From Acaryochloris marina MBIC11017 (GTDB taxonomy: Bacteria > Cyanobacteriota > Cyanobacteriia > Thermosynechococcales > Thermosynechococcaceae): DNA of 32,000 nucleotides. The stretch is from NCBI RefSeq assembly GCF_000018105.1, contig NC_009925.1, forward strand, positions 2,850,001-2,882,000, written 5' to 3'. The notes under the pieces were generated by a model. That model ran no database searches and had not been told where the DNA came from. It saw only the letters and a program-made list of their open reading frames with translations. Positions 2,544 to 31,173 of the stretch are shown here, one piece after another. How positions within the stretch are numbered: position 1 is the stretch's first letter; each line of letters begins with the position of its first letter. The position numbers were made by a program, and so were the translations under genes.

Positions 2544-2764
2544 CTCGCTAAGCCTGCTATCAGAGGACTTTCGGCAAATCTTCCGAGAGATAACCGCCTC
2601 CAATCCTACCGATAAATGAATCCGCTGCTGGAAAACGCAACAGAATGTTGCCATTCCTTCCCAATTTCCCTGATTTTTTAGGCAGAGGAGTAAATCAAGA
2701 CTGTCGCTTCATGCAACGGTAGGGGAACTCTAGGGCCATAAATTGACTTGTCTCTGGTAGCAAG

Positions 2765-7639: not shown

Positions 7640-9508
7640 TTAGGTTTCGTCGAAGGATAGGTTGGCAAAATGTTCTTGGAGGTAGCGGTGAACGAAGACG
7701 TAGCTACCACCTGTGCGGTAGATAAAAAGGCGATCTTCCGCTTGCTGAAAAAAGGTGACAAAATTCCAGGGGATTTGCTTAGTGTGGTAAAGGACTAAAC
7801 GCATCGCAAAGTGCTGAATAGAGGTTAGTCCTCCTCCTGCAAGAAAAGCTCCCATGATTGGTAACCCTATGACTAATCGAATAACGCGTTTCACTAAATT
7901 TGGGTCTAAGGACGAAAGCAAAATATTTTTCAAGAAAAAATAAATAATAATCGTAAAAAAAATCGATATTGTAACCGTGATCACCATAGTTTTGAGAGAT
8001 TCCCAAATACCTTGATTTGGGAAAGTCCGCTTTATAATATCGACTTTTAAGCCTCCAATCAGCCCTAAAATTAGCCCAAAAATCAGTCCGAAAATCAGCC
8101 CTCCAATCAGTCCGAAAATCAGCCCTCCAATTAGCCCTCTAGTTAGCCCAACAATTAGCCCAAAAATTAGCCCAACAATTAGCCCAACAATTAGCCCTCT
8201 ATTTAGTCCATAAGTTAGCTCTCTTCTCAACGACGCCAAAATGTCTCGTCCCGTTGTTCGGGACATTGAAATTTTTAAAGCTTCTACAAGAACAATAGGT
8301 TTTTGCCCTCCAATCAGTCCTCCAATCAGTCCTCCAATCAGCCCGTAAATTAGCCCTAAAATTAGCCCAGAAATTAGCCCTTCGGGTAGCCATCTAAGCC
8401 CTCTAATCAGCTCAAAAATCGGCTTAAAATTCGAATTGCAAGTCGCATCGATAGTCGAATCGCAAATCAAATCGAAAATCTCTCCTCTTATCACATCTCC
8501 AGTCAGCTCATAAATCAGTCCTCCAATTAGCCCTAAAATTAGCCCAAAAATCAATCCTGAAATTAGCCCATAAATCAGCCCATAAAGATATTTGTCTCTT
8601 GCTGTTTTTAACCAATCTTTGGGTTGCATTCGCTCAATCAAAAATTCTTTATCGGTCCCCATTTTCTTGGCTATTCCTCGGAGCCAGCGCAACATTTGTT
8701 GCTGTTCTTTCTCAGAAGACAAAGGTCGCTGAGCAAACATTCGTTCAATATAGCGTTCAAACAGGAGGCTTAATTTCTGGTCTTTATCTAAATGAAGTAA
8801 CTCCTGAGGTGAGCGATTGCAATAGGCCAAAGTCAAAATCCTCAGAAAAAGCGGCGTATTGGTTAAATCCCGCAGCGAAGAATTGACCTTTGAAGAATTG
8901 GCCTTTTTTAAACCAACGAGTGCTTCCCCTCCCTGTTGTAAATACTCATTCACCTGCTTGTCTTTTAAAGGTTGAACATACACCGCTGCTTGAAACCCTT
9001 TTAATCTTGTGTTCAGTGCTTTATAGTCAGCAATTCGGCAGCACAGCACGATTTCGATATTGCCAAATTTTTGCCGAAACTGATTTAATGCGTCTACACA
9101 AGCATCACGATATTGGGGTTTGACTTCATCCAAACCGTCTAACAGCAAGGTCCATTTCTCTTGCCTCAGCCAAGTTTTCCCCACTTCTATGCGAACTAGA
9201 TATTGCTGCCATAGCTCTTCCAGCAGCCACTTGGTAAAGACTAGCGTTCCATCTGCAGGGAACCGCTGACTGCCCCAAGCCGACAAATTCAACACAATCG
9301 GTATCGGTTGTTTTAGTTCTCGAAAATCAGTCGCTTTCAATAAATCTTGCGCTAGCTCCAACAGCAACGTCGTTTTCCCGGCACCCGGTTTTCCCAGCAC
9401 CAGCAACGTTCCCCCACTGCCTAAATTGGCGAATCGATCCAGTAAGCACGTACCAGGGGGCAACAACTGTTGCTCTTCTCCCTCGCTTGGCCATTTCACC
9501 CCCACCAT
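7640..9508 (-). CDS. NACHT-family STAND NTPase with an internal glycine-zipper (GLIx)n transmembrane array
   Basis: 622 aa. Walker A is LVLGKPGAGKTTLLLEL and Walker B is LLLDGLDEV. The NACHT-type C-terminal strand is LFIYRTGGSYVFVHRYLQEHFA. Residues 307-487 contain three blocks of GLI(F/G/L/V/Y/S) repeats, followed by two ordinary TM helices. Confidence 0.85.
   Translation of the reverse strand: MVGVKWPSEGEEQQLLPPGTCLLDRFANLGSGGTLLVLGKPGAGKTTLLLELAQDLLKATDFRELKQPIPIVLNLSAWGSQRFPADGTLVFTKWLLEELWQQYLVRIEVGKTWLRQEKWTLLLDGLDEVKPQYRDACVDALNQFRQKFGNIEIVLCCRIADYKALNTRLKGFQAAVYVQPLKDKQVNEYLQQGGEALVGLKKANSSKVNSSLRDLTNTPLFLRILTLAYCNRSPQELLHLDKDQKLSLLFERYIERMFAQRPLSSEKEQQQMLRWLRGIAKKMGTDKEFLIERMQPKDWLKTARDKYLYGLIYGLISGLIFGLILGLIGGLIYELTGDVIRGEIFDLICDSTIDATCNSNFKPIFELIRGLRWLPEGLISGLILGLIYGLIGGLIGGLIGGQKPIVLVEALKISMSRTTGRDILASLRRELTYGLNRGLIVGLIVGLIFGLIVGLTRGLIGGLIFGLIGGLIFGLIFGLILGLIGGLKVDIIKRTFPNQGIWESLKTMVITVTISIFFTIIIYFFLKNILLSSLDPNLVKRVIRLVIGLPIMGAFLAGGGLTSIQHFAMRLVLYHTKQIPWNFVTFFQQAEDRLFIYRTGGSYVFVHRYLQEHFANLSFDET
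8048..8212 (-). repeat. 12-nt in-frame tandem repeat block C (about 13.5 units) encoding (G-L-I-x)n
   Basis: The plus strand reads ccaatcagccct aaaattagccca aaaatcagtccg aaaatcagccct ccaatcagtccg and so on. It translates on the minus strand to YGLNRGLIVGLIVGLIFGLIVGLTRGLIGGLIFGLIGGLIFGLIFGLILGLIGGL. Confidence 0.9.
8306..8383 (-). repeat. 12-nt in-frame tandem repeat block B encoding EGLISGLILGLIYGLIGGLIGGLIGG
   Basis: It has the same 12-nt unit family (ccaatcagtcct ccaatcagtcct ccaatcagcccg taaattagccct ...). Confidence 0.9.
8504..8590 (-). repeat. 12-nt in-frame tandem repeat block A encoding YLYGLIYGLISGLIFGLILGLIGGLIYEL
   Basis: It has the same 12-nt unit family (aaatcagtcct ccaattagccct aaaattagccca aaaatcaatcct gaaattagccca taaatcagccca). 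Confidence 0.9.
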
Positions 9509-10279: not shown

Positions 10280-12172
10280 ATGCTCCATTGTCTGAACCCC
10301 ACTTGCACCCATCCCCAGAATCTGGATGGCCATGAAACCTGCCAGAACTGTGGCCAACCCCTGATCGGCATATTGCGCCATCGATATCACATCATCAAAC
10401 CCCTAGGGCAAGGTGGGTTTGGCATTACCTATTTAGCCGAAGATCTTGAGCGATTTAACGAAACCTGCGTCGTTAAACAACTAACCTACCAAAGCCCGGA
10501 TAGCCCAGGAGCCCAGCAAAAAGTCCAAGACCTGTTTACCCAAGAAGCCCAACAGCTCTTTCAACTCGGCACCCATCCGCAAATTCCCAACCTGCTCGCC
10601 TACTTCCATGAAGGAGGCCGTCAATATCTCGTCCAAGAATTTATTGAGGGTCATAATCTTTTTCAAGAATTGAAACGTGAAGGGATCTATAACGAAACCA
10701 AACTAAGGCACTTTCTCTCCAGCATTCTGCCCGTTTTGGACTATATCCATACCCAAGGCGTCATTCACCGCGATCTGAAACCCCATAACATCATGCATCG
10801 CTCCGCCGACGATCGTTATTTCCTGATTGACTTTGGGGTGACCAAGCAGGTCAATACTCAAGAAACCGTCGGCACTGTTTTAGGCAGCGAAGGCTATGCC
10901 GCCTTTGAGCAATTAAACGATGGACGTACTTATCCTGCTAGTGATTTATACAGCCTAGGGGTGACCTGTTTTCATTTCTTGACAGGCCATGATCCACGGT
11001 CACTTCAACTGCAAATTGGATACTCTTGGACCCAAAACTGGCAGAAACACCTTTCACAACCCCTCAGCCCTCAACTCATCTCAATTATTGATACGCTGCT
11101 ACAAATTAGACTCGAAAATCGCTACACCTCTGTTGAAGAAGTTCTCAAGGATTTGGAACAATCACCCACCTCCCCAACAACAGTAGACGTCGCTACCAAC
11201 AGCCCCTTTATCCATCAAACCAACAAACTTGAGCTTGCTAACACAGCCGACCATACTGCCGTCTTATTTGAACCCGATCCCCCAGCACCACCCGTCGCAC
11301 ACCCCCTATCCTCCCCCTTAGAAACCACACAATTTGAAGTAGCAACCCTCGATCTCCTCGGTCAAATTCAGTCTATCCAAACCCTGAGTGCTCAACGTTA
11401 TATCGAGGAATTAGACAATGGACTGTCCCTAAACATGGTTGCTATTCCAGCAGGGAGTTTTCTCATGGGTTCACCCCTCACAGAAATATCCAGACAAAGA
11501 TTTGAAGGTCCTCAGCATCCAGTCACAGTCCCCGCGTTTCATATGGGGCAATTTCTGATCACGCAAGCGCAATGGCAAGCCATCGCGGCACTCCCCGCCG
11601 TCAACCAAGATCTTCTCCCAGATCCTTCCCAGTTCAAGGGAGAAGACCGCCCTGTTGAAGGAATTTCCTGGCTAGATGCTGTCGAGTTTTGCGACCGACT
11701 CACCCGTAAACTCAATCGACTCTACCGCCTCCCTAGCGAAGCAGAGTGGGAATATGCCTGCCGAGCCAACACCACAGCCCCCTTTCACTGTGGCGAAAAT
11801 CTCACCTCCGATCATGCCAACTTGCATGGCATGAAAACCTATCGGTCAGCCCCCAGAGGGCAGTATCGCAATCAGACAACTCCTGTAGGCAGTTTTCGCC
11901 CCAATGCCTTTGGTCTCTACGATATGCACGGCAATGTCTGGGAATGGTGTGCCGATCATTGGCATCCCAGCTATCAAGACGCTCCTGTAGATGGCAGCAT
12001 CTGGTTCGCCCAGGAGAATGTCATTGCAGACAATGCTCCTCATCCTTGGCGAGGAGGATCTTGGTATGATGCGCCCGCAAGCTGTCGTGCTGCCTATCGA
12101 ACCTTTGCAGATGCCGACTTTAAGAGCAGTAATTTAGGCTTGCGTGTCGTCAGTCCAGTTCTGTCCCCCTAA
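10280..12172 (+). CDS. Ser/Thr protein kinase with N-terminal 4-Cys zinc ribbon and C-terminal FGE-sulfatase (SUMF1-like) domain
   Basis: 630 aa. The zinc ribbon is CLNPTCTHPQNLDGHETCQNCGQPL. Kinase motifs are the G-loop LGQGGFG, VVKQL, HRDLKPHNIM and LIDFGVTK. The C-terminal FGE-type motifs are WQAIAALP, RPVEGISWLDAVEFC, YRLPSEAEWEYACRA, HGNVWEWC and RGGSW. Confidence 0.9.
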   Translation: MLHCLNPTCTHPQNLDGHETCQNCGQPLIGILRHRYHIIKPLGQGGFGITYLAEDLERFNETCVVKQLTYQSPDSPGAQQKVQDLFTQEAQQLFQLGTHPQIPNLLAYFHEGGRQYLVQEFIEGHNLFQELKREGIYNETKLRHFLSSILPVLDYIHTQGVIHRDLKPHNIMHRSADDRYFLIDFGVTKQVNTQETVGTVLGSEGYAAFEQLNDGRTYPASDLYSLGVTCFHFLTGHDPRSLQLQIGYSWTQNWQKHLSQPLSPQLISIIDTLLQIRLENRYTSVEEVLKDLEQSPTSPTTVDVATNSPFIHQTNKLELANTADHTAVLFEPDPPAPPVAHPLSSPLETTQFEVATLDLLGQIQSIQTLSAQRYIEELDNGLSLNMVAIPAGSFLMGSPLTEISRQRFEGPQHPVTVPAFHMGQFLITQAQWQAIAALPAVNQDLLPDPSQFKGEDRPVEGISWLDAVEFCDRLTRKLNRLYRLPSEAEWEYACRANTTAPFHCGENLTSDHANLHGMKTYRSAPRGQYRNQTTPVGSFRPNAFGLYDMHGNVWEWCADHWHPSYQDAPVDGSIWFAQENVIADNAPHPWRGGSWYDAPASCRAAYRTFADADFKSSNLGLRVVSPVLSP

Positions 12173-12475: not shown

Positions 12476-14350
12476 ATGGTTTGTTGTCTCAATCCCAAGT
12501 GTGAGAAACCCCTCAACCCGGACACCAGTAAATATTGTCAACAGTGTGGTGCTAAACTAACGCTGTTAAGACGGCGATTCAAGATGGTTCGTCTGCTGGG
12601 TAAAGGTATGTTTGGCAATACGTATCTTGCAGAAGATCGAGATAATTTGCAAGAACCCTGCATTGTCAAACAGCTCATTTGTCAAGCCCAGGGAACGGAT
12701 GCCAGCCAGACGGTTGTTGAACCATTTTTACAAGAGGCAGAACAACTTAGACGGCTGAAAAAAAACCAGCATATCCCCAGCATTTTAGCGTACTTCGAAG
12801 AAAATTATATTCCCTATTTGGTCCAGGAATTTATCGACGGCCAAGACCTGCAACAAGTCATTGAAAATCAAGGTCCCTTCAGTGAAAATCAAGTTCGGGC
12901 CTTGTTGCTAGAGCTATTACCCGTCTTACAGACCATTCATGATCAAGGGGTGATTCATCGGGATCTAAAACCCGCTCACATCATGCGTCAGCATTCGGAC
13001 AACAAGCTGATTTTGGTGGGGTTTTGTGTCTCCAAACAAATCAATTTATCTCGGTTACAACAAACCGATAACGTTCGCGAGAATACCAGCTACGCACCAC
13101 CCGAAGTCTTTGCCGTCGACAAAGCCCGTCCCGGCAGCGATCTCTATAGCCTCGGGGCAACCTGCGTCCATCTGCTCACAGGCGTTGCACCCCACGCTTT
13201 ACCGATTCAGGGCGGGGCCGTATGGGTCGAACATTGGCAACAGCATCTTCCCCAGCCGTTAAGTGCTGAATTAAAGCCAGTGCTAGAGAAGTTATTAAAG
13301 ACAGATCTAGCGGAGCGATATACATCCGCATTAGAAGTGCTCAGAGAAGTACGGGGCTTAGCCAAAGGAACCACTCGCCCCCTCCCTCAAGCACCAGCCG
13401 TTCGAGTCGCTCAGGCCGCTGGCCAGACAGCCCCGCAGGTCAGATCTCAGCCCAAAGCCCCTGCCCAGCAAACCACACTGCAGTCTAAACCCAAGTCTTC
13501 TACCCCTTCCTTCCAGGCGGAAGTTGCCCAAGTCGATGCCAATGGCCAAGTGGTGAGTCGCCAATTTCATCCGATTAGCTACATGACTGAAGATATCGGT
13601 AAGGACGTCAAGCTGGAGATGGTGCATATTCCAGCAGGCCGCTTTTCCATGGGCTCGCCCCCTAGCGAGCAGCATAGACAACAGACCGAGAGTCCCCAGC
13701 ATATTGTGTCCATTCCGGAGTTTTATTTAAGCCGCTATCCGATCACTCAAGCGCAATGGCGGTTAGTCGCCGCCTTACCCGCCGTCAAGCGCGAACTGGA
13801 TGATTCTCCGTCCCACTTTACGGGAGACAATCGCCCCGTCGAAAGCGTCTCTTGGTTCGATGTCGTCGAATTCTGTAACCGACTTTCCCAGCTCACCGGC
13901 AAGGACTATCATCTCCCTAGTGAATCTGCCTGGGAATATGCCTGCCGCGCCGCCAGCAACACACCGTTTGCCTTTGGCGAAACCCTGAACACAGAACTGG
14001 CCAATTATGATGGCACGGCAACCTATGGAGCTGGATCAACGGGGAGTTTTCGTCAACAAACCACCCAAGTCGGCAAGTTCCCAGCGAATCCGTATGGGTT
14101 ATCGGATATGCATGGCAATGTCTGGGAATGGTGTGCCGATCATTGGCATGGCAACTATGGCAATGCTCCAGTTGACGGCAGCGTTTGGCAAGATCAATAC
14201 TTTTTTGCCTGCGTGCTCCGGGGAGGAGCCTGGAACACTCAAGCGGCGAGCTGTCGTTCCGCCTCCCGCATTTGGGAAGCGGCCTCTGAACAAAGCAATC
14301 ACATTGGTTTTCGGGTGGCTTGCACCATAGCTAAACCCGCCAGCCCATAA
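12476..14350 (+). CDS. Paralogous 4-Cys zinc ribbon / kinase-like / FGE-sulfatase-domain protein, with a predicted pseudokinase core
   Basis: 624 aa. The zinc ribbon is CLNPKCEKPLNPDTSKYCQQCGAKL. It retains LGKGMFG, IVKQL and HRD, but the catalytic loop is HRDLKPAHIM (Asn to His) and DFG is replaced by GFC (LILVGFCVSK). A P/A/Q-rich linker follows, then FGE motifs (RPVESVSWFDVVEFC, YHLPSESAWEYACRA, HGNVWEWC, RGGAW). Confidence 0.9.
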   Translation: MVCCLNPKCEKPLNPDTSKYCQQCGAKLTLLRRRFKMVRLLGKGMFGNTYLAEDRDNLQEPCIVKQLICQAQGTDASQTVVEPFLQEAEQLRRLKKNQHIPSILAYFEENYIPYLVQEFIDGQDLQQVIENQGPFSENQVRALLLELLPVLQTIHDQGVIHRDLKPAHIMRQHSDNKLILVGFCVSKQINLSRLQQTDNVRENTSYAPPEVFAVDKARPGSDLYSLGATCVHLLTGVAPHALPIQGGAVWVEHWQQHLPQPLSAELKPVLEKLLKTDLAERYTSALEVLREVRGLAKGTTRPLPQAPAVRVAQAAGQTAPQVRSQPKAPAQQTTLQSKPKSSTPSFQAEVAQVDANGQVVSRQFHPISYMTEDIGKDVKLEMVHIPAGRFSMGSPPSEQHRQQTESPQHIVSIPEFYLSRYPITQAQWRLVAALPAVKRELDDSPSHFTGDNRPVESVSWFDVVEFCNRLSQLTGKDYHLPSESAWEYACRAASNTPFAFGETLNTELANYDGTATYGAGSTGSFRQQTTQVGKFPANPYGLSDMHGNVWEWCADHWHGNYGNAPVDGSVWQDQYFFACVLRGGAWNTQAASCRSASRIWEAASEQSNHIGFRVACTIAKPASP

Positions 14351-14438: not shown

Positions 14439-17180
14439 ATGGAAGTTCTCTCCGTTACGCTGAAAAACTTTAAGGCCCATCGCGATCGCTACTATGAATT
14501 CCGACCGGGGGCCAATGCCATTTGCGGTGAAAATGGATCAGGGAAGACTAGCATCCTGGAAGCCATTGCCTGGGTTCTATTCGATCACAGTGAATATAAA
14601 CGAGCCGAACTGATTAGCGTCGGGGCTAAAAGTGCCCAGGCCATGGTCAGCTTTATCTCCCACTTGGATGGGCGGATCTATGAGGTGCGTCGCTGTACCA
14701 GCCGTGGCTATGAGGTTCACGACCCCCAACTCAACCGCAAGCTAGAACTGAAAAAACTGGATGATGTTCGCTGCTGGCTCTGTGAGCACTTGGGGGTGGG
14801 GGTCCATACGGAACTCGCCAAACTCTTTGCGGAAACCATTGGCATTCCCCAGGGCACCTTTACAGTAGATTTCCTCAAATCGGCGGGCGATCGCAAAAAG
14901 GTATTCGATCCCATCCTCAAGGTGGAAGAGTATAAACAGGCCTACGATCAGGCCCAAAAATTAACCAGCTATGCCCAGGCCCAAGTCCAACAGCTAGAAC
15001 AGCAATTACAGAGCTATGACCAGCAACTCGAAGGCTGGGAAGCACTGAAACAACAGAAGCTAGAGCTGGCCAACACCTTGACTCAACAGCAGGCCCAGAT
15101 GCAAACCCTGGCCCAGCAGTTGGCCGAGATGCAGACGGAACTCCAATATTTAAAGGCCAAAGACCAGGCCATCCAAACCCTAGAAAAACAGGTTCAGCAT
15201 CTCCAAACCCAATGGACCAGTAAACAGGAAATTCTCCAGCTCTTAGAAGAGAATTGGCAGCAGGCCGATCAAGCCGTTCAGATTTGCCGTCAGCATCGGC
15301 CCCAATTTCAGGCCTATCAAACAGCCCAAGAGTCCCTCAAAGACCTCGCTCAGCAGCAGAAGCAACGACAGCAACTGTTGCAAGAACGCGATCGCATCCA
15401 AACTACCCTGCGGGATCAGCAAGTCTTGCTCTCCCAAAACCAAGGCCAGCTTTCCACCTTCGCCAAAATGGAAACAGAACTCCAGGACTGGCAAACCAAA
15501 GTTCCCCAGCAACAGCACCTCGAACAAGAAAAGACTACCTGCCAGCAAGCTCTACAAACCCTGGTCTCAGAACAACAGCAGCTGCAACGACTGCAAGAAC
15601 TGCGCCACAAACAGCAGCAGCATCGGGAAACCCTCAGCCAGACTATTAGCCAACTGGTCACCCTAGAGCCCCAAGTTCAAGCCATTCCGAACTTTGAAAC
15701 TCAGCAGCAGCAGATTCAAGAACGACTGGGACGGATTGCCGCCGCCCAGCAATTTGCCACAGAATTACAGACCTTAATCACCGAAGCTGAACCCCAACAG
15801 CAGCAATACCAACAACAAGTCGGCAAAGCCAAAGCGCTCCTCAAGAGCCTATCTCTCACCCAAGCCCAAACTACCCAACTCTCCACTCTCCTAGACCAGG
15901 GGGCGGCCCTCACCCACCAAATTATTCAGCAGCTACAAACGGCGTTTGCCGACATTATTGATCCGCAGGCGGTTACCAAGCTCAAGCAACAGCTTCAACA
16001 GATTAAAACCCAACTCAAAGCCGCCCAAAAAGCCCAGACCCAGTGGCTGATGTTAGAGGCCAAGCAGCAGCAGCTGACAGAGCTGGATCAAGGGATGGAG
16101 TCCTGGCAGCAGGAGTGCGATCGCATCCAAGTCTCCCTCAACCAAGAACCCCAACTCCAAAGCCAGCTCAAACAGCTCAACACCCAGCTCACAGAGCTAA
16201 ACAACCCCCAGGGCCATGTCAGCATCCTAACCAAACAGTTGCAAGAGGCTGCCCAACTAGAAGCCGAAATTGCCCGTCTCCAACAGGCTTGTCAACGGCA
16301 TGAACAGTCCCTCACCACCGTTGATACCCAGATCAAAGCCTTGGGAGATCTGGAGGCCCAAGTCGATGCCCAACAGCAGATCCAGCAGGAGCATCAGGAG
16401 GTCTATCAGCTCTATTTACGCCATCGAAATCAGGCTAATACGTTTAAAGAACTGGATCAGCAACGCCGAGGGGCAATGGCAACCCAAGCTCAGCTTCAAA
16501 CTCAGCTCACAGCAGCTCAAGCCCAATGGCAGGAGAAGCTGCACGTCCATAAACCGGAGCGTTTAGCAGAATTAAGTCAAACCTATGAACAACTGCAGCG
16601 CCAGCATGATCAACTTCAGGGTGGGTTGGCACCGCAACAGGCACAGCTTCAATATTTAGACCAACAACTGCAAGCTAAGCAAGCCCTTGCCCAAGAGCGT
16701 GATCAAATCCTAATCACCCTAGACAGCAAGCGCCAAATCTCACAGTTTGTCACGGACGCTCGCAATATCTATAAGCAAAGCGGTCCCCGGATCACCAAAT
16801 TCTATCTCACGGAAATTTCTTGGGAAGCCGATCGGTTGTATCGAGAACTGCTAGATCGACCAGACGTGGCTTTACAGTGGACTGAAGATTATGAAATCCA
16901 GGTACAAGAACAGGGCCACTGGCGTACCTTCAAGAGCCTGTCTGGTGGTGAGCAAATGTGTGCGGCGCTAGCGGTGCGATTAGCCTTACTGAAAGTCCTA
17001 GTGGATATCAATATTGCGTTTTTCGACGAGCCCACCACGAACATGGATGAACTGCGTCGTCGGCAGTTGGCCGAAGCCTTAGGGCATCTCAAATCCTTTC
17101 ATCAGCTATTTGTAATTAGCCATGATGACACCTTTGAGAGCGTTACAGAAAATATTATTCGGGTCGAGCGAGCCAGTTAA
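14439..17180 (+). CDS. SbcC/Rad50/SMC-like ABC ATPase with a long Gln-rich coiled coil
   Basis: 913 aa. The N-terminal head has FRPGANAICGENGSGKTSILEA (Walker A). The C-terminal head has SLSGGEQ (signature), IAFFDEPTTNMD (Walker B/D-loop) and FVISHD (H-loop). About 600 residues of heptad-like, Q-dominated sequence lie between the heads. Confidence 0.8.
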   Translation: MEVLSVTLKNFKAHRDRYYEFRPGANAICGENGSGKTSILEAIAWVLFDHSEYKRAELISVGAKSAQAMVSFISHLDGRIYEVRRCTSRGYEVHDPQLNRKLELKKLDDVRCWLCEHLGVGVHTELAKLFAETIGIPQGTFTVDFLKSAGDRKKVFDPILKVEEYKQAYDQAQKLTSYAQAQVQQLEQQLQSYDQQLEGWEALKQQKLELANTLTQQQAQMQTLAQQLAEMQTELQYLKAKDQAIQTLEKQVQHLQTQWTSKQEILQLLEENWQQADQAVQICRQHRPQFQAYQTAQESLKDLAQQQKQRQQLLQERDRIQTTLRDQQVLLSQNQGQLSTFAKMETELQDWQTKVPQQQHLEQEKTTCQQALQTLVSEQQQLQRLQELRHKQQQHRETLSQTISQLVTLEPQVQAIPNFETQQQQIQERLGRIAAAQQFATELQTLITEAEPQQQQYQQQVGKAKALLKSLSLTQAQTTQLSTLLDQGAALTHQIIQQLQTAFADIIDPQAVTKLKQQLQQIKTQLKAAQKAQTQWLMLEAKQQQLTELDQGMESWQQECDRIQVSLNQEPQLQSQLKQLNTQLTELNNPQGHVSILTKQLQEAAQLEAEIARLQQACQRHEQSLTTVDTQIKALGDLEAQVDAQQQIQQEHQEVYQLYLRHRNQANTFKELDQQRRGAMATQAQLQTQLTAAQAQWQEKLHVHKPERLAELSQTYEQLQRQHDQLQGGLAPQQAQLQYLDQQLQAKQALAQERDQILITLDSKRQISQFVTDARNIYKQSGPRITKFYLTEISWEADRLYRELLDRPDVALQWTEDYEIQVQEQGHWRTFKSLSGGEQMCAALAVRLALLKVLVDINIAFFDEPTTNMDELRRRQLAEALGHLKSFHQLFVISHDDTFESVTENIIRVERAS

Positions 17181-24095: not shown

Positions 24096-25676
24096 ATGTC
24101 AGTTAAGATTTGTCAACAATCCAGATCACAAAGATCGAAAAAAGTTGGAAGATATTTAGCCTTGAGCTTGGGACTAGTGCTGCTATGGCCGCTTCAACGA
24201 GCTCAGGCCGATAGTCCCTTAACCTCCACCGATCTGGCCACAGCCTATCAAGAGATGCCGGAAGTCCAGTTAGCCCAACGCACCAAAGCTGCCAAGGGCC
24301 AGGTCTTAAAGTTCCTGCTGAGCGATGCCCCCACGGACCAAAAAGCAGCGGTGATTAATGCTCTGGGCTGGAATTTTAAGGGCCAACGAAATGGCTATCG
24401 TTTCCTAGCCGGTTTAGCTCAAGCCCAAGGACTGGCCCTGCAAGAGATCCAGCTTCACCATTTGCGGCCTACCGATCGCTTTGCCCTAGGCTATCTGCTG
24501 GCCATGGATGATTATTTTGAACTGTCTTCCTTATCTAAAACGGCGACTGAAGACCTGTGGAAAGCCAGTCCCCTACAGCTGATCAGTCAAGCGGCTTATG
24601 CCTTACCCGATGATTTTACGGTGCAGTTTGTTCGCGCGATTGTCCAGGGACAGAACGACTTTTCTCGCTCTTGGTGCTCAATCTATCTAGAGCCACAGCA
24701 AGTGTTAAACCAATTTCCTGTGGCGAAACGGAATTTGCGATCGCAAGCCGTTACCCAGGCCATGCAGTATCTCAATCGCTATGAGTCCCACTGCCAGCAA
24801 CCTGCTTTCTTGACGAACCAACCGTCCGTTAACCCTGAACTCAACCAAATCTACAAAATTGTCGAATTTCAGAATCAGATAGTCACAGCCACTCAGGGCG
24901 GGATTGTCTTTTGGGATCCACAATCCCAGACGGCAACCGCAACCCGAGCGGAGAAGCTCTGTACATCCCTGATGGTCTGGTCCAATGCGCTATGGGTGGG
25001 CTGTCAACATCGCCTCTTGCGCTTCGACAGCAACAACTGGAAGCTCTATCGCTATAGCCCTCAATCCACGGAAAGCGGTTTTCAGCTCGTCCCAGGTCCT
25101 CAAGGAACCTTACTCGTCCGCCACGGGGGACAACTCTGGCAGTTTGATCCGAAGAAAGATCGGTTAGTCGCTGCCGATCCACAGTTGGGTCCCGGACACA
25201 GCTATGACCTGCTCTATCGACGCAATGGCGAGCAATGGCGGATCGATTTTCTCCAAGCCCTCTGGCGCAATCAGCAACGCATCTCGCTCCAGTCTGATGC
25301 CTATCCTGGTAGCGATCCGCGATCGTTTTATGAAGATGCCAACGGTCAACTGTGGGTGGTGGACTTTAACCAGGGCTTTTTTCGCTTCAATGACCAGACC
25401 CAAACCTTTCAAGCCATGACCCGTGTTGCCGGTAAGGGATCTGCGATCGCAACCGATCAACAGCACACCTACTTCCTGCACTACACCTCAGGATTGTATG
25501 TTCAGACGCAAGGTCAAGCCGACCCCACGTTCATTGACCTCTCAACATTACGCTATATGCGAGACCTCTTCGTCGATCAGAAGGGTGATATTTGGATCGG
25601 GGGCTGGAATCAATTGGTGCGATTACGTCGCCAAGGAAATCAGTGGAGCCGAGACCGTTATCGCCTGTTTAACTAA
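24096..25676 (+). CDS. Secreted protein with C-terminal beta-propeller-like (Reg_prop-like) repeats
   Basis: 526 aa. The signal peptide is RYLALSLGLVLLWPLQRAQA|DS. Recurrent motifs are ALWVGCQHRLLRF, GQLWVVDFNQGFFRF and GDIWIGGWNQLVRL. Confidence 0.6.
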   Translation: MSVKICQQSRSQRSKKVGRYLALSLGLVLLWPLQRAQADSPLTSTDLATAYQEMPEVQLAQRTKAAKGQVLKFLLSDAPTDQKAAVINALGWNFKGQRNGYRFLAGLAQAQGLALQEIQLHHLRPTDRFALGYLLAMDDYFELSSLSKTATEDLWKASPLQLISQAAYALPDDFTVQFVRAIVQGQNDFSRSWCSIYLEPQQVLNQFPVAKRNLRSQAVTQAMQYLNRYESHCQQPAFLTNQPSVNPELNQIYKIVEFQNQIVTATQGGIVFWDPQSQTATATRAEKLCTSLMVWSNALWVGCQHRLLRFDSNNWKLYRYSPQSTESGFQLVPGPQGTLLVRHGGQLWQFDPKKDRLVAADPQLGPGHSYDLLYRRNGEQWRIDFLQALWRNQQRISLQSDAYPGSDPRSFYEDANGQLWVVDFNQGFFRFNDQTQTFQAMTRVAGKGSAIATDQQHTYFLHYTSGLYVQTQGQADPTFIDLSTLRYMRDLFVDQKGDIWIGGWNQLVRLRRQGNQWSRDRYRLFN

Positions 25677-25842
25677 GAATTAATCTCTTCTTAAGTCGGA
25701 TAATTCTTATTTGTTAAGCCCCTCACTTTCCGGATGTCACTTTTTTGTATCCTAAAATACAATTATTCATATCTAGACTTGATATTTCTTGTATAGAGAC
25801 CCCATTAATCAATTAGTCATAATTCTTCAACAAAATACTTGT

Positions 25843-25972
25843 TTCTAGGGTTCCGATTTGAGCGCAATTTCGTCTTAAATGACTGGTCCAAGAGAAACAG
25901 CTAGCTTTTTACATATCTATTACCCACAGACATGTAGCTAGTGACACGGAGGGACAAAAGCCCGGGAGAATC
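25843..25972 (+). ncRNA. Guanidine-I (ykkC) riboswitch aptamer
   Basis: It contains CTAGGGTTCCG (25845-25855), GGTCCAAGAG (25885-25894) and ACACGGAGGGACAAAAGCCCGGGAGA (25944-25969). These are the conserved ykkC cores in the correct order. Confidence 0.85.
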
Positions 25973-26022
25973 AACGTTTACCGTACATTCGGTAATGATT
26001 GGCTCCGCGGGTTTTGTATTTT
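25961..26022 (+). terminator. Riboswitch expression platform: intrinsic terminator sharing its 5' arm with the aptamer 3' end
   Basis: CCCGGGAG (25961-25968) pairs with CTCCGCGGG (26003-26011) over 8 bp with one bulge. TTTTGTATTTT follows at 26012-26022. Confidence 0.65.
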
Positions 26023-26118
26023 AAATTGACACGTCTCATCTTCCTCTAAAATGGCTGAGAAACAACATGAAGAAAGAAATTAACGTGACAAAGTAAAAAC
26101 CCTAAATTTTCCGATATT

Positions 26119-27315
26119 ATGGCTGAAAACTCGACCTTTGGTCCTCCCAATTCTGATCCTAATTTTTCGTCCACTGAGGCCAATCGTGCTTTAGAGAAAG
26201 AAGCACAATTGCCCCTCACGGGCTGGCAACAAGAAGTTGACCGGGGATTAGAACTGGGGTTAGAAGCGGCGGCTAGTATTCGCGATCGGAGCATCCCCAC
26301 CTTCTCGCGAGGCGAGCTGCCCCACTATGCGGGCATCAATACCTTCCTCAAAGCGCCTTACCTAGAAGATGTGCGTAAAGTCGATGAATACGATATTGCT
26401 GTAGTAGGCGTTCCCCATGACTCCGGCACCACTTATCGTCCCGGTACGCGCTTCGGCCCCCAGGGTATTCGTCGGATTTCAGCCCTGTATACTCCTTATA
26501 ATTTCGAGCTGGGTATCGATTTACGAGAGCAGATCACCCTCTGCGATGTTGGGGATATCTTCACCATCCCCGCCAATAATGAGAAATCTTTTGACCAAAT
26601 TTCCAAAGGAGTCGCCCATATCTTCAGTTCTGGCGCTTTCCCTATCATCTTAGGGGGCGATCATTCCATTGGTTTCCCCACTGTTCGAGGGGTTTGCCGC
26701 CATTTAGGGGACAAGAAAGTCGGTATCATCCACTTCGATCGCCATGTGGATACCCAAGAAACGGATTTAGACGAGCGCATGCATACCTGCCCTTGGTTTC
26801 ATGCCACTAACATGGCCAATGCTCCGGCTAAAAACTTAGTGCAATTAGGCATTGGCGGTTGGCAAGTGCCTCGACAAGGGGTCAAGGTCTGTCGAGAGCG
26901 AGCCACGAATATTCTCACCGTCACCGATATCACTGAAATTGGACTTGATGCTGCCGTTGACTTCGCCTTAGAACGAGCCTTAGACGGCACAGACTGCGTC
27001 TATATCAGCTTTGATATTGACTGTATTGATGCTGGATTTGTCCCCGGTACCGGCTGGCCAGAACCCGGCGGTCTGATGCCCCGAGAAGCTCTCTATATGT
27101 TGGGCAAAATTATTCAAAAAGCCCCCGTCTGCGGCTTGGAAATCGTTGAAGTGTCACCCCCTTATGACATCAGCGATATGACCTCGCTCATGGCCACTCG
27201 GGTCATTTGCGATACCATGGCCCATCTTGTGCTGTCGGGGCAACTTCCCCGGCAAAAAGCACCAGACTATATTCATCCTGAAGCCAATATGGCAGTAGGT
27301 TCTGAGTGGGTTTAG
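26119..27315 (+). CDS. gdmH: Arginase/ureohydrolase-family enzyme; best interpreted as Ni-dependent guanidine hydrolase (usually annotated agmatinase SpeB2)
   Basis: 398 aa. Ureohydrolase metal motifs are ILGGDHSIGFP, IIHFDRHVDT and ISFDIDCIDAGFVPGTGWPEPGG. It has an N-terminal extension of about 60 aa relative to SpeB. It lies behind a guanidine riboswitch and in front of hypA/hypB-like genes. Confidence 0.8.
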   Translation: MAENSTFGPPNSDPNFSSTEANRALEKEAQLPLTGWQQEVDRGLELGLEAAASIRDRSIPTFSRGELPHYAGINTFLKAPYLEDVRKVDEYDIAVVGVPHDSGTTYRPGTRFGPQGIRRISALYTPYNFELGIDLREQITLCDVGDIFTIPANNEKSFDQISKGVAHIFSSGAFPIILGGDHSIGFPTVRGVCRHLGDKKVGIIHFDRHVDTQETDLDERMHTCPWFHATNMANAPAKNLVQLGIGGWQVPRQGVKVCRERATNILTVTDITEIGLDAAVDFALERALDGTDCVYISFDIDCIDAGFVPGTGWPEPGGLMPREALYMLGKIIQKAPVCGLEIVEVSPPYDISDMTSLMATRVICDTMAHLVLSGQLPRQKAPDYIHPEANMAVGSEWV

Positions 27316-27318
27316 GCC

Positions 27319-27699
27319 ATGCATGAAACGGATATGACCAAGGCCCTAATTATGACGGTCAAGGACTGGTACGATTCCCAGCCTGAAGATCCACAAATCA
27401 CCAAAATTCATTTGGTGGTGGGTCGGTTTACCTGTGTGGAACCTGTCAGTTTGCAGTTCGCTTATGAAGTCCAGACTCGGGACACCTTCTTAGCGGGGAC
27501 AGAGTTGGTGATTCGGGAGACCCCTTTAATCGCTTTTTGCCACCCCTGTCAGCAGGAATATTCTCCTGAAATGGGCTTGCAATATGCCTGTCCCACGTGT
27601 GGAGCCCCCATGGAAGATATCCGGTCCGGCCGCGAACTCAAAATTGACCACATCGAATATTGTTCTGATTCAGCCCAAACCTATGCACCAAACTGTTGA
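27319..27699 (+). CDS. ghaA: HypA-like Ni metallochaperone (guanidine hydrolase accessory protein A)
   Basis: 126 aa. It has the N-terminal MHE Ni motif and the zinc motif CHPCQ...CPTCG. It starts 3 nt after the preceding stop. Confidence 0.8.
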
Positions 27700-28381
27700 C
27701 GCCGCCCTCGGCATTAACCTCTTACATGCCAATCAAGAAGGGGCCGATCACAACCAGGCTCACTTTAACGAATGGGGAGTGACCTGCTTTAACGTCATGA
27801 GCAGTCCAGGTGCAGGGAAAACGGTTCTGTTAGAGAAAACTCTGGCAGCTCTCAGCCCAGACCTCAATCTGGCCGTCATTGAAGGGGACATGACTACAGA
27901 ACTGGATGCTGATCGCTTGCGAGCTTACGATGTCCCTGTGGTGGCAATTAACACGGGGCGGTCCTGCCATCTAGACGCCAAGATGGTGGCGGGCGGTATC
28001 CACCAATTGGAGCATTGCACCAATCCTAGAGAGTTGGATTTAGTGCTAGTAGAGAATGTCGGAAATCTTGTATGTCCGGCAGAATTCGAAGTAGGGGAGC
28101 ATGCCAAAGTTGCCCTACTCAGCGTGACAGAGGGGGAAGATAAGCCGCTGAAATATCCAGTGATGTTTCAAGCAGCCGATTGTCTGTTGGTGACCAAGAT
28201 AGATTTAGTTCCTTATCTAAATATTGATATTGAGCAGATTGTCCAAAATGTCCGTCAGCTCAATCCCCATGCCACGATTTTGCCAGTGTCTGCCCAAACA
28301 GGGACAGGACTTTCTGAATGGTTTGAGTGGGTTCGTCAGCAGGTTGTCCACCTCAAACGGACTGCAGTCGGTAGTCACTAG
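27683..28381 (+). CDS. ghaB: HypB-like Ni-binding GTPase (guanidine hydrolase accessory protein B)
   Basis: The ORF is 27584..28381. The likely start is ATG 27683 ([17 protein letters not shown]), overlapping the hypA-like stop by 17 nt. G1 is SSPGAGKT, followed by [12 protein letters not shown] and VTKIDL. Confidence 0.85.
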
Positions 28382-28408
28382 TTGTTTGTAAGCAGGTAAA
28401 AGATTTCT

Positions 28409-29434
28409 ATGAAGCGACGAAATTTTCTATCCCTATGTTTAGTATTTTTTTGCAGTTTACTGCTGACGATCAGTTGTAGCCCATCGCCTGAGACGACCAC
28501 GGATTCATCTTCAGGCAAGCCTGTGGTGATTGGCTATAGTAGCTGGGCAGGATGGTGGCCCTGGGCCATTGCCGAGCAAGAAGGTTTATTCAAAAAGCAT
28601 GGGGCAAATGTCGAGCTGAAATGGTTTGACGGCTATTTAGAATCGATGAAAGCATTTTCTGCAGGCCAATTGGATGGCAACTGTCAAACCTTAAACGACA
28701 CCATTTCCTTTGCAGCCGATGCAGTCAATGGAGAAGTGGCGGTTTTGGTCAATGACAATTCTGCTGGCAACGATAAAATTATCGTGACGGCTGAGATCAA
28801 CAAAGTTGAAGACCTCAAAGGGAAAACGGTAGCCGTTGAAGCCGGGGTTGTAGACGACTTTCTCCTGACTTTAGCCTTAGAAGAAGAGGGTATGAAACGC
28901 TCTGATGTCAAAATTAAGGACTTACCGACAGATGCAGCCGCCGCCGCTTTTGCTGCCGGACAAGCGGATGCGGTGGGCGCGTTCCCTCCTTTTTGGTTAA
29001 CAGCTTTAAAGCGTGAAGGTAGCAAAGAGCTAATTTCCTCTAAAGAGTTTCCCGGTGCCATTCCTGATCTGCTGGTGGTGAGTCAAAAGCTGATTGATGA
29101 GCGTCCTGACCAGGTCCAAGCATTAATCGATACTTGGTTTGATATCCGAGACTTTATGGCCAAGAACCCTGAACGTTCGGATGAGATTATGGCGCAACGA
29201 GCAGGTGTGAGTGTTGAAGAATTCCAGCAATTTAAGGAAGGAACACGATTCTTCACCATTGAAGACAACTTGGAAGCCTTTTCCGCTGGCGGCGACGATA
29301 TGAAATATATGCCCTTTGCAGCTCAGCGGATGAGTAAATTTATGGTGGATGTGGGCTTTATTCCTAAAGGACCGGATCTCACTAAGATTTTCAATGACAC
29401 CTTTGTAAAAGCCTATGCGGAGAAAACAGCCTAA
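28409..29434 (+). CDS. ABC transporter substrate-binding lipoprotein (NitT/TauT, NMT1-like family)
   Basis: 341 aa. The signal plus lipobox is FFCSLLLTISC|S. It shows the SsuA/NrtA-like fold pattern (VIGYSSWAGWWPW, GKTVAVEAG). Confidence 0.8.
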   Translation: MKRRNFLSLCLVFFCSLLLTISCSPSPETTTDSSSGKPVVIGYSSWAGWWPWAIAEQEGLFKKHGANVELKWFDGYLESMKAFSAGQLDGNCQTLNDTISFAADAVNGEVAVLVNDNSAGNDKIIVTAEINKVEDLKGKTVAVEAGVVDDFLLTLALEEEGMKRSDVKIKDLPTDAAAAAFAAGQADAVGAFPPFWLTALKREGSKELISSKEFPGAIPDLLVVSQKLIDERPDQVQALIDTWFDIRDFMAKNPERSDEIMAQRAGVSVEEFQQFKEGTRFFTIEDNLEAFSAGGDDMKYMPFAAQRMSKFMVDVGFIPKGPDLTKIFNDTFVKAYAEKTA

Positions 29435-29457
29435 CATCTAGGATTGCCCCAAACAGC

Positions 29458-29495
29458 ACTTCCCCCCTTTTTGCCCCATAGGGAAGGGGGGAAGT
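29458..29495 (+). other. Perfect 12-bp GC-rich intercistronic hairpin between the SBP and permease genes
   Basis: ACTTCCCCCCTT (29458-29469) pairs with AAGGGGGGAAGT (29484-29495) around a 14-nt loop. No U-tract follows. Confidence 0.7.
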
Positions 29496-29521
29496 CTAAG
29501 AACGCTCACCCCATAAGAGTT

Positions 29522-30394
29522 ATGAGTGCTAATTCTGTTCCACCACAACATGAGAAAACAGCGAAGACTCAAGGACTTCAACCCACAGTCTTTTGGCGCA
29601 TCGCTGAGGATATCCCCCCTGGCCTCAGCTGGCTGTTGATGGTGCTTTCTGTTGCAGTACCCCTGACCTTTTGGTGGTTGTTGGCCACCTATGGTGACGT
29701 CAATCCTGCTTTCCTACCCTCTCCAGGTAAAGTCGGGACAGCATTTGTTGATCTGTGGCATCAGTACGATACCCTCAATCAAAAGGATACCTACCCACTC
29801 TTTCAAGCCACCCTGATGAGCTGTTTTCGGGTGGGTAGCGGCTTTTTGCTGGCCTCTATACTGGCTGTGCCAATGGGGATTGGCATGGGGGCCTTCGCCA
29901 GCTTGCGATCGCTGGGTGAACCGATCATTGGCATCGTTCGATATATGCCCGCACCAGCGTTTATTCCCCTCCTACTGATCTACTTAGGGTTAGAGGAAGA
30001 GCCGAAAATTGCCCTGATTTTTATCGGTACGATTTTCTTCAATGTGCTGATGATTATGGATGCCGTTAAGTTTGTCCCGAAAGAACTGATTGAAACGACC
30101 TATACCCTGGGCGGGAATCGGACTCAAGTCTTGCTTCAGGTAATTACTCCCTATGTTATTCCTCGCATTATTGACGCCTTCCGCGTCAATATGGCGGCGT
30201 CTTGGAATCTAGTGGTGGTCGCAGAGTTGGTCGCAGCCGACGAAGGTCTGGGTAAACGAATTCTGCTAGCCCAACGCTTTAACAGTGTGGATAAGATTTT
30301 TGTCTGCTTAATTGTGCTAGGGTTGCTGGGATTTAGTTTGGATCTCTTTTTTCGCTGGCTACAACATGTCACATGTCGATGGGCCATTGAATAG
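29522..30394 (+). CDS. ABC transporter permease (NitT/TauT family)
   Basis: The ORF starts at 29444, but its first 26 codons cross the hairpin, so I prefer ATG 29522 (MSANSVPP). It has six hydrophobic helices and the EAA-type loop ETTYTLGGNRTQVLLQVITPYVIP. Confidence 0.85.
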   Translation: MSANSVPPQHEKTAKTQGLQPTVFWRIAEDIPPGLSWLLMVLSVAVPLTFWWLLATYGDVNPAFLPSPGKVGTAFVDLWHQYDTLNQKDTYPLFQATLMSCFRVGSGFLLASILAVPMGIGMGAFASLRSLGEPIIGIVRYMPAPAFIPLLLIYLGLEEEPKIALIFIGTIFFNVLMIMDAVKFVPKELIETTYTLGGNRTQVLLQVITPYVIPRIIDAFRVNMAASWNLVVVAELVAADEGLGKRILLAQRFNSVDKIFVCLIVLGLLGFSLDLFFRWLQHVTCRWAIE

Positions 30395-30396
30395 CA

Positions 30397-31173
30397 ATGC
30401 ATTTAGAAACCATCCATTTGTATAAAAGCTTTGCGGTTCGCCAAGGGCAGCTTTCAGTTCTTGAAGACATTAATCTGCATGTGGAAGCGGGGGAGTTTGT
30501 CTGTGTTGTCGGTGCCTCAGGTTCAGGTAAATCGACACTACTCCGTCTAGTGGCCGGTTTGGACACGCCGACCTCCGGCTTAATTACGGTAGATGGTCTC
30601 CGGGTGATTGGTCCGGGTAATGACCGCGGTATGGTGTTCCAACGCTATACCCTTTATCCCTGGATGACTGTGGCTGAGAATGTGGCTTTTGGCCTGAAGC
30701 TGCAAAAACTGCCTAAATCAGAGCGCCAGCAGCGGGTAGCCTATTATTTGGAGGTCGTGGGTCTCACTAATTTTGCCCGAGCCTTACCCCGTGAACTTTC
30801 GGGTGGAATGCAGCAACGAGTCGCCATCGCACGTTCCTTAGCCTGTCAACCCAAAATTTTACTGATGGATGAACCGTTTGGGGCCTTAGATGTGCAAACC
30901 AAAGAGACCATGCAGGAATTTTTACTGGATCTATGGCGACGGACAGGGACGACCATTTTAATGATCACCCATGATGTGGAAGAAGCCATTTTCCTGTCGC
31001 AGCGCATTTATGTTCTCACCGCTCGCCCAGGTTCGGTTCAACGGGAGGTGTTTATTAACCTACCTGCAGAACGGACGTATACGATCAAGCGTCAGGCTCT
31101 CTTTCAAGACTATCGCGATGAAATTATGGATCTGTTACGGGAGAAATCTGCCTTAGATCCAGTGATAGACTGA
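30397..31173 (+). CDS. ABC transporter ATP-binding protein
   Basis: 258 aa. It has Walker A GASGSGKST, signature LSGGMQQR, Walker B LLMDEP and H-loop ITHD. Confidence 0.9.
   Translation: MHLETIHLYKSFAVRQGQLSVLEDINLHVEAGEFVCVVGASGSGKSTLLRLVAGLDTPTSGLITVDGLRVIGPGNDRGMVFQRYTLYPWMTVAENVAFGLKLQKLPKSERQQRVAYYLEVVGLTNFARALPRELSGGMQQRVAIARSLACQPKILLMDEPFGALDVQTKETMQEFLLDLWRRTGTTILMITHDVEEAIFLSQRIYVLTARPGSVQREVFINLPAERTYTIKRQALFQDYRDEIMDLLREKSALDPVID

Follow-up and report, generated by a model that had tools for sequence, protein, structure and literature searches.

The 32,000-nucleotide window analysed here, positions 2,850,001 to 2,882,000 of the Acaryochloris marina MBIC11017 contig NC_009925.1, carries three adjacent genes that encode an arginase-fold enzyme and a pair of HypA- and HypB-type nickel chaperones. 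There is little doubt that this trio is the orthologue of gdmH, ghaA and ghaB of Synechocystis sp. PCC 6803, and that it belongs to a six-gene guanidine-assimilation locus that also encodes an ABC importer, GimABC (Table 1). The system itself is already known: experiments in Synechocystis, where gdmH-ghaA-ghaB-gimABC correspond to sll1077-sll1082, have demonstrated the enzyme, the chaperones, the importer, the riboswitch and NtcA control alike (Wang 2021, PMC8390497; Itzenhauser 2025, PMC12704784). GdmH is described as a Ni-dependent, guanidine-specific enzyme that is activated by two accessory proteins, and gdmH shares an operon under guanidine-I control with the genes of an ABC importer (PMC12186494; PMC12704784; PMC8390497; and PMC11399263, which cites Funck 2022). 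The value of the present analysis is a corrected annotation rather than a discovery, and no open question is answered by it.

The enzyme encoded by gdmH

The product of gdmH matches the Pfam Arginase family over residues 92-366 (E 1e-77) and carries the motifs GGDHS at 179, DRHVD at 207, DIDCID at 299 and PGTG at 309. An earlier note, made from the DNA letters, had described a 398-amino-acid (aa) ureohydrolase-family reading frame with these metal motifs, and all were found where it had placed them. The best match in the Protein Data Bank (PDB) is Synechocystis Sll1077/GdmH (7ESR/7OI1, labelled 'probable agmatinase 2'; E 1.8e-238), with 86.9% identity over 382 ungapped residues, and the Nitrospira inopinata guanidinase 9FEK matches with an E-value of 3.4e-175 and 67.1% identity. 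The next match, after the GdmH-clade entries, is proclavaminate amidinohydrolase (E 1.1e-47), and the true agmatinases in the PDB reach E-values of 1e-34 to 1e-38. In bits, Sll1077 scores 794.7, as against 123-133 for solved agmatinases, and beyond the GdmH clade no solved ureohydrolase exceeds 166; the comparison with Sll1077 that the earlier note had proposed is decisive for the enzyme. With E-values of 1e-30 to 1e-238, chance is no concern.

An N-terminal extension, estimated beforehand at about 60 residues, comes to about 58 by alignment to agmatinases: these enzymes and proclavaminate amidinohydrolase align from residues 64-90 of the query, which correspond to their own residues 10-32. 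Conservation was assessed in an alignment of 203 clade members (the window protein, 80 genomic orthologues, 120 database homologues, Sll1077 and 9FEK), with PDB chain numbering corrected for a two-residue tag offset before signature residues were placed. Residues 16-91, which span the extension, are 76-86% conserved. The six metal ligands (H182, D207, H209, D211, D299 and D301) are invariant in 203/203 sequences, and so are the guanidinase-signature residues T105, H222, W313 and E344. The latter four have been proposed as important for guanidine catalysis, Trp313 being the equivalent of Trp305 of Sll1077 (PMC11410670).

Automatic naming suggests a different enzyme, and the warning in the earlier note that homology-only labels would mislead was justified. 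A collection of 5.8 billion proteins, queried with Sll1077 as reconstructed from its PDB alignment, yielded 120 orthologues at 84-92% identity whose database names are 'agmatinase' or 'agmatinase family protein'. Pfam Arginase and the NCBIfam agmatinase models are the best-named matches of the gdmH product, and the chaperones pass equivalog models named hypA and hypB. Read at face value, these names describe a Mn-dependent SpeB agmatinase that merely lies beside hydrogenase-maturation genes whose client is encoded elsewhere. However, the gdmH product falls under both NCBIfam agmatinase cut-offs (TIGR01230, 171.9 versus 174.3; NF002564, 206.2 versus 302), it is 87% identical to the characterised guanidine hydrolase but only weakly similar to solved agmatinases, and the specificity residues, including the Trp that narrows the pocket, are invariant. 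Identity, cut-offs and invariant residues thus all separate it from the Mn agmatinases with which, as the earlier note had allowed, it might have clustered. Moreover, a guanidine-sensing riboswitch stands over the unit, the three genes keep their synteny in dozens of genera, the substrate of Sll1077 is guanidine and not agmatine (PMC12186494, PMC8390497), and HypA2/HypB2 of Synechocystis are not needed for its hydrogenase (PMC4517062). The probability left for a Mn-dependent agmatinase is very small. The Ni-dependent guanidine hydrolase with its own Ni-insertion machinery that the earlier note had put forward is instead supported, at the level of sequence, by the 86.9% identity to Sll1077, the signature residues and synteny.

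The database search did not return Sll1077 itself, and no match exceeded 92% identity in that collection. Synechocystis PCC 6803 Sll1077 is seemingly absent from the results, or lies inside a cluster with a representative of about 91% identity.

The nickel chaperones GhaA and GhaB

The ghaA product scores 112.8 bits against the TIGR00100 hypA model (cut-off 88.1) and 4.5e-30 against Pfam HypA. Its N-terminus begins MHETDM and its zinc site reads CHPC...CPTC, in agreement with the HypA homologue, with MHE and CxxC...CxxC motifs, that had been noticed 3 nucleotides (nt) downstream of the enzyme gene. M1, H2, E3 and the cysteines are conserved among 78 sequences. A Cys-containing C-terminal tail of 13 residues was considered as an extra metal site and ruled out, as the tail is variable among orthologues; it is probably irrelevant, to judge from that variation.

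The ghaB product scores 307 bits against the TIGR00073 hypB model (cut-off 121) and contains the P-loop SSPGAGKT and the segment ENVGNLVCP. When aligned with the solved HypB structures 2HF8, 2WSM and 4LPS, the Cys-His pair of GhaB (..RSCHLD..) and the cysteine of ..NLVCP.. coincide with residues that form the metal site in HypB of M. jannaschii and H. pylori. Inspection of the window protein revealed neither a His-rich tract nor an N-terminal CxxCGC motif. Because the N-terminal MHQ is invariant in 73 orthologues, the start of ghaB was fixed at the in-frame ATG at 27683, which bears out the 17-nt overlap with ghaA claimed for the HypB homologue; a longer start at 27584, the longest form in the mechanical list of open reading frames, was rejected on the same ground. 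The Met-His-Gln triplet (window 27683-27691) resembles the MHE nickel-binding N-terminus of HypA and, by analogy with it, could be a nickel-binding motif of HypB paralogues dedicated to GdmH.

GhaB is 70-96% identical to gdmH-linked orthologues by tblastn, versus at most about 50% identity to plasmid-borne HypB proteins, including those of metformin-hydrolase operons. A Trichormus plasmid HypB (46.7% identity to GhaB) was tried as a hydrogenase-linked comparator and dropped, since its neighbours are cyd and feo genes without hydrogenase genes. As the earlier note had remarked, the window offers these chaperones no conventional client: Pfam scans of all other open reading frames of at least 100 aa, and of the open frames at both window ends, revealed no hydrogenase or urease gene. 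In Synechocystis, nickel maturation of GdmH is the task of Sll1078 and Sll1079 (formerly HypA2/HypB), whose genes are co-transcribed with gdmH (PMC12704784), and active GdmH has been obtained when the chaperones were co-expressed (PMC11410670; PMC11399263). HypA2/HypB2 are dispensable there for the Hox hydrogenase, for which HypA1/HypB1 alone are required (PMC4517062).

Conservation of gene order

Gene order was surveyed by scanning one genome per species, keeping the best 80 cyanobacterial loci and locating six window proteins in them by tblastn. Of these 80 loci, 77 have the pair ghaA and ghaB beside gdmH, always in the order gdmH-ghaA-ghaB save for two loci with ghaA-ghaB-gimABC-gdmH; in the three loci that lack the pair, the contig ends about 400 nt or less from gdmH. 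GhaA identity ranges from 61 to 95% across the loci, and gimABC is present in most of those that are sufficiently long. The closest locus, from an Acaryochloris metagenome-assembled genome (L001), encodes a GdmH that is 96% identical, has about 78% nucleotide identity and shows collinearity with the window from about 20.6 kb up to its end. Although Acaryochloris has many plasmids, a search of PLSDB gave no plasmid match for the locus. Itzenhauser 2025 likewise reported that gdmH, ghaAB and gimABC are widespread and syntenic in cyanobacteria (PMC12704784).

Two metagenome-assembled contigs, labelled 'Candidatus Gracilibacteria' (L017) and 'Sphingobacterium thalpophilum' (L022), each contain a gdmH-ghaAB-gimABC cluster of the usual cyanobacterial kind, with 87-89% identity. 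Binning contamination, not horizontal transfer, is the most likely origin of both.

Table 1. Genes and regulatory features of the guanidine locus (window positions)
Feature	Position	Strand	Description	Basis
NtcA-type box (putative)	25747-25760	+	GTATCCTAAAATAC, perfect GTA-N8-TAC; 87 nt upstream of aptamer	
-10 element (candidate)	25783-25788	+	TATTTC; 22 nt downstream of NtcA box	TAT invariant in three-way alignment
Guanidine-I (ykkC) riboswitch aptamer	25834-25970	+	Full-length match, model positions 1-107 of 107	Rfam RF00442
Expression platform (predicted)	25957-26022	+	Intrinsic-terminator type	Minimum-free-energy folds
gdmH	26119-27315	+	398 aa; predicted Ni2+-dependent guanidine hydrolase (guanidine + H2O -> urea + NH4+)	Similarity to Sll1077
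ghaA	27319-27699	+	126 aa; HypA-type nickel metallochaperone; starts 3 nt past gdmH stop codon	TIGR00100, Pfam HypA
ghaB	27683-28381	+	232 aa; HypB-type GTPase nickel chaperone; 17-nt overlap with ghaA	TIGR00073
gimA	28409-29434	+	341 aa; putative periplasmic guanidine-binding protein of ABC importer	NMT1/SsuA family
gimB	29444-30394	+	ABC permease; start uncertain, TTG 29444 being a mechanical call	Pfam BPD_transp_1, 2.2e-21
gimC	30397-31173	+	ABC ATPase	Pfam ABC_tran, 6.6e-33

The guanidine riboswitch and its predicted expression platform

The unit lies directly behind a guanidine riboswitch, as had been read from the sequence. The aptamer scores 74.9 bits on RF00442, for which the gathering score is 63 (E 8.5e-12), is the sole Rfam family matched in the whole window, and carries insertions of 12 nt and 26 nt in its variable loops relative to the Rfam consensus. 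By an nhmmer profile, 65 of the 80 loci have the aptamer upstream of gdmH at a distance of at most 500 nt, a result that supersedes exact-string counts of aptamer cores (59, 48 and 40 of 79 loci), which are an undercount. Seven of the 15 aptamer-negative loci (L015, L019, L024, L033, L047, L055 and L069) were confirmed as negative by Rfam cmscan, and none of these seven matched another guanidine riboswitch class. The guanidine-I riboswitch is therefore common, yet not universal, in the gdmH clade. One of the negative loci, L055, contains the nitrogen-stress small RNA NsiR1 at 1999-2054.

Minimum-free-energy folding places a terminator hairpin at 25957-26015, with -26.7 kcal/mol for the segment 25955-26030. 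In the 5′ arm of the predicted hairpin, GCCCGGGAG (25960-25968) also serves as part of the 3′ strand of helix P3 in the aptamer. Its pairing partner is CUCCGCGGG (26003-26011), with UUUUGUAUUUU coming next. L001 and a second Acaryochloridaceae locus, L002, conserve the two arms as well as the U-tract. Since terminator and P3 are mutually exclusive, the geometry predicts an ON switch in which guanidine induces anti-termination, the mechanism of other guanidine-I riboswitches (PMC12704784).

Between the platform and gdmH lies a leader of about 100 nt (26023-26118) with blocks conserved in L001 and L002, namely CTAAAATG, ACATGA and GTGA..AAGTAAAAA. It also contains an upstream open reading frame of 10 codons (26051-26083, MAEKQHEERN), whose counterpart in L001 has 11 codons (MTKKKHDELRN) and which has no start codon at that place in L002. 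Coincidence in an AT-rich stretch, or an element of the leader, could account for this.

Promoter and probable NtcA control

Three perfect NtcA boxes occur in the 32 kb of the window, where about 2.35 are expected by chance, so that the count alone carries no weight. The box at 25747-25760, the only perfect match within 7 kb, gains weight because it is invariant in relatives and recurs upstream of aptamer cores: its half-sites, and the TAT 22 nt downstream, are invariant in an alignment with L001 and L002, and a perfect NtcA box lies upstream of the aptamer core in 48 of the 59 loci with an exact core, mostly at a distance of 62-116 nt. NtcA-activated promoters have the layout GTAN8TAC-N22-TAN3T, which the spacing of the candidate -10 element fits, and transcription is predicted to start near 25795. 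An alternative -10-like hexamer, CATAAT at 25818-25823, is not conserved in L002. In Synechocystis, both NtcA binding upstream of gdmH and guanidine-dependent switching have been shown by experiment (PMC12704784).

The importer and the extent of the transcription unit

The three genes downstream of ghaB encode the components of an ABC importer. GimA residues W46, W49, D122, F192 and D220 match 5/5 of the residues proposed to contact guanidinium in Sll1080 (W59, W62, D135, F205 and D233), a correspondence that was mapped by a constant offset of 13 and not by alignment. Across the surveyed loci, gimA is syntenic in most, gimB is found at 51-67% identity and gimC at 62-81%.

Only 27 nt (28382-28408) separate ghaB from gimA, and the sole terminator-like site around this junction is a weak hairpin at 28360-28376. 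Given this short gap and the lack of a nearby NtcA-like box, co-transcription of all six genes is plausible, and the locus may form one transcript under a single guanidine riboswitch, as opposed to the two separately regulated units of Synechocystis. If so, guanidine would switch on its own import. Taken jointly, a single six-gene transcript and a GdmH-specific nickel-binding role of the GhaB Met-His-Gln would be two modest departures from the Synechocystis model, and the combination is offered tentatively, being rather doubtful.

Proposed working of the system

Computation established the orthology of the enzyme, the conservation of its catalytic residues and of those for specificity, the motifs of the chaperones, gene order, aptamer, terminator geometry and the NtcA box. 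By analogy with the Synechocystis system, the locus would share its nickel dependence, guanidine specificity, chaperone requirement, ligand response and NtcA control. Guanidine would be taken up through GimABC. Once bound by the aptamer in the 5′ leader, it would keep P3 closed, so that no terminator forms and transcription reads through into gdmH; NtcA, acting via the box at 25747-25760, probably adds activation under nitrogen limitation. GhaB, as a GTPase, and GhaA would then supply the binuclear site of GdmH with Ni2+ in place of the Mn2+ that is usual in this fold. The mature enzyme is expected to convert free guanidine to urea and ammonium, its pocket being presumably narrowed by the N-terminal extension and Trp313 such that agmatine and other larger guanidino substrates are excluded. 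The urea would be passed on to a urease encoded elsewhere.

Comparison with known systems

The Synechocystis GdmH system was reportedly also described in Funck 2022 (Nature 603:515). The A. marina locus resembles it in gene order, metal ligands, pocket residues and the N- and C-terminal extensions of the enzyme, in the HypA- and HypB-type chaperones directly downstream, in the NitT/TauT-type ABC importer with five identical proposed ligand residues, and in the RF00442 aptamer in the 5′ leader with an NtcA box upstream. The arrangement that the earlier note had likened to Sll1077 with Sll1078/Sll1079 matches the published gdmH-ghaA-ghaB-gimABC system (PMC12704784, PMC8390497, PMC12186494). The two loci differ in that the A. 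marina enzyme is 8 residues longer at a poorly conserved N-terminus, in the 17-nt overlap of ghaA and ghaB, and in the longer variable loops of the aptamer. Unlike in Synechocystis, where gimA has an NtcA-dependent promoter of its own, A. marina gimA follows 27 nt after ghaB and is not preceded by an NtcA-like box.

The guanidinase of the comammox bacterium N. inopinata (9FEK) belongs to the same clade, has Thr105, His222, Trp313 and Glu344 at identical positions and has its gene in an operon under riboswitch control, but it lacks the cyanobacterial C-terminal extension and has an APC permease as partner instead of an ABC importer (PMC11410670). Ni2+ dependence, specificity for free guanidine and the products urea and ammonium have been reported only for Sll1077 (PMC8390497, PMC12186494) and for the N. 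inopinata enzyme (PMC11410670). The metformin and dimethylguanidine hydrolases (MefH/DmgH, MfmAB) share the Ni-dependent arginase fold and activation by adjacent HypA/HypB proteins (PMC11399263, PMC11271267, PMC10927577). They differ in being heteromeric enzymes of two subunits that match the gdmH product only distantly, at E-values of about 1e-38 to 1e-41, and in having their chaperones upstream, a HypB that is about 47% identical to GhaB, and no guanidine riboswitch. SpeB and other Mn-dependent ureohydrolases (TIGR01230; 7LOL, 1WOG, 1GQ6, 3NIO) have in common with GdmH the arginase fold and six His/Asp metal ligands; they lack the N-terminal extension of about 58 aa and the pocket-narrowing Trp, use Mn2+ without chaperones, and act on substituted guanidines.

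Points that weigh against a close copy of the Synechocystis system

Several observations weigh against the proposal that the locus works exactly as its Synechocystis counterpart does. To begin with the chaperones, their assignment as dedicated GdmH maturases orthologous to Sll1078 and Sll1079 is supported by synteny, motifs and the published description rather than by an alignment or tree. GhaA and GhaB might also be shared with a NiFe hydrogenase or urease encoded elsewhere and take part in its maturation, an added function that would be compatible with service to GdmH. In Helicobacter, HypA and HypB serve hydrogenase and urease alike, and both A. marina proteins pass the corresponding equivalog models. 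Such sharing is nevertheless unlikely: close linkage of the two genes to gdmH holds in 77/80 loci, a guanidine riboswitch over them would tie hydrogenase maturation to guanidine, hydrogenase-linked HypB proteins from plasmids share no more than about 50% identity with GhaB, and the Hox hydrogenase of Synechocystis needs only HypA1/HypB1 (PMC4517062). At the level of regulation, no convincing second NtcA box was found before gimA, the nearest site with at most one mismatch being at 28091, 318 nt away.

The remaining evidence of this kind comes from N. inopinata, whose guanidinase crystal contains one Ni and one Mn and whose genome is without recognisable HypA/HypB-type chaperones (PMC11410670); strict dependence on nickel and chaperones is therefore not universal in the clade. 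The A. marina enzyme could by the same token be a clade member with another substrate or metal in its own lineage, such as methylguanidine or another small guanidine, with mixed Ni/Mn and chaperones that are helpful but non-essential. In keeping with this, the authors of the N. inopinata study raise another possible substrate for their Ni- and Mn-containing, chaperone-free homologue (PMC11410670), and metformin and dimethylguanidine are substrates towards which related ureohydrolases with nickel have evolved (PMC11399263). Set against it are the 87% identity to Sll1077 with all examined pocket residues identical, a riboswitch class that is specific for free guanidine (PMC12704784, PMC11410670), and the retention of a dedicated chaperone pair at 70-96% identity. 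A changed substrate or metal is thus very improbable, and a guanidine hydrolase of the Synechocystis type is the reading adopted here.

Other genes in the window

Immediately upstream of the gdmH promoter, positions 24096-25676 encode a protein of 526 aa whose N-terminus resembles a signal peptide and which has only a faint 'Reg_prop' match. It is 71% conserved in the Acaryochloris locus L001 and is not found in the other loci, and the gene probably lies outside the guanidine system. Farther upstream, the products of tandem paralogues at 10280-12172 and 12476-14350 combine a Ser/Thr protein kinase with an FGE-sulfatase (SUMF1-like) domain in one chain. On one side of the pair lies a NACHT NTPase gene (7640-9508, minus strand), on the other the gene of an SbcC/Rad50-like ATPase (14439-17180). 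Adjacent glycoside hydrolase genes of families GH2 (778 aa) and GH9 (cellulase type, 586 aa, with a CelD_N domain) occupy 2765-6824 and adjoin a gene for a TRAP DctP-type solute-binding protein (1416-2654, minus strand). Further genes recognised by Pfam encode an EamA transporter, a DUF389 protein and others.

Implications for annotation and for guanidine assimilation

The automatic names agmatinase, hypA and hypB, together with sulfonate or taurine transporter for the importer, conceal a complete nitrogen-assimilation pathway from guanidine to urea, and such labels could falsely imply polyamine synthesis and hydrogenase maturation. Correct labels add an Acaryochloridaceae-like lineage to the known spread of guanidine assimilation, and the locus supplies a further natural guanidine-I riboswitch, predicted to be an ON switch, with a probable NtcA promoter.

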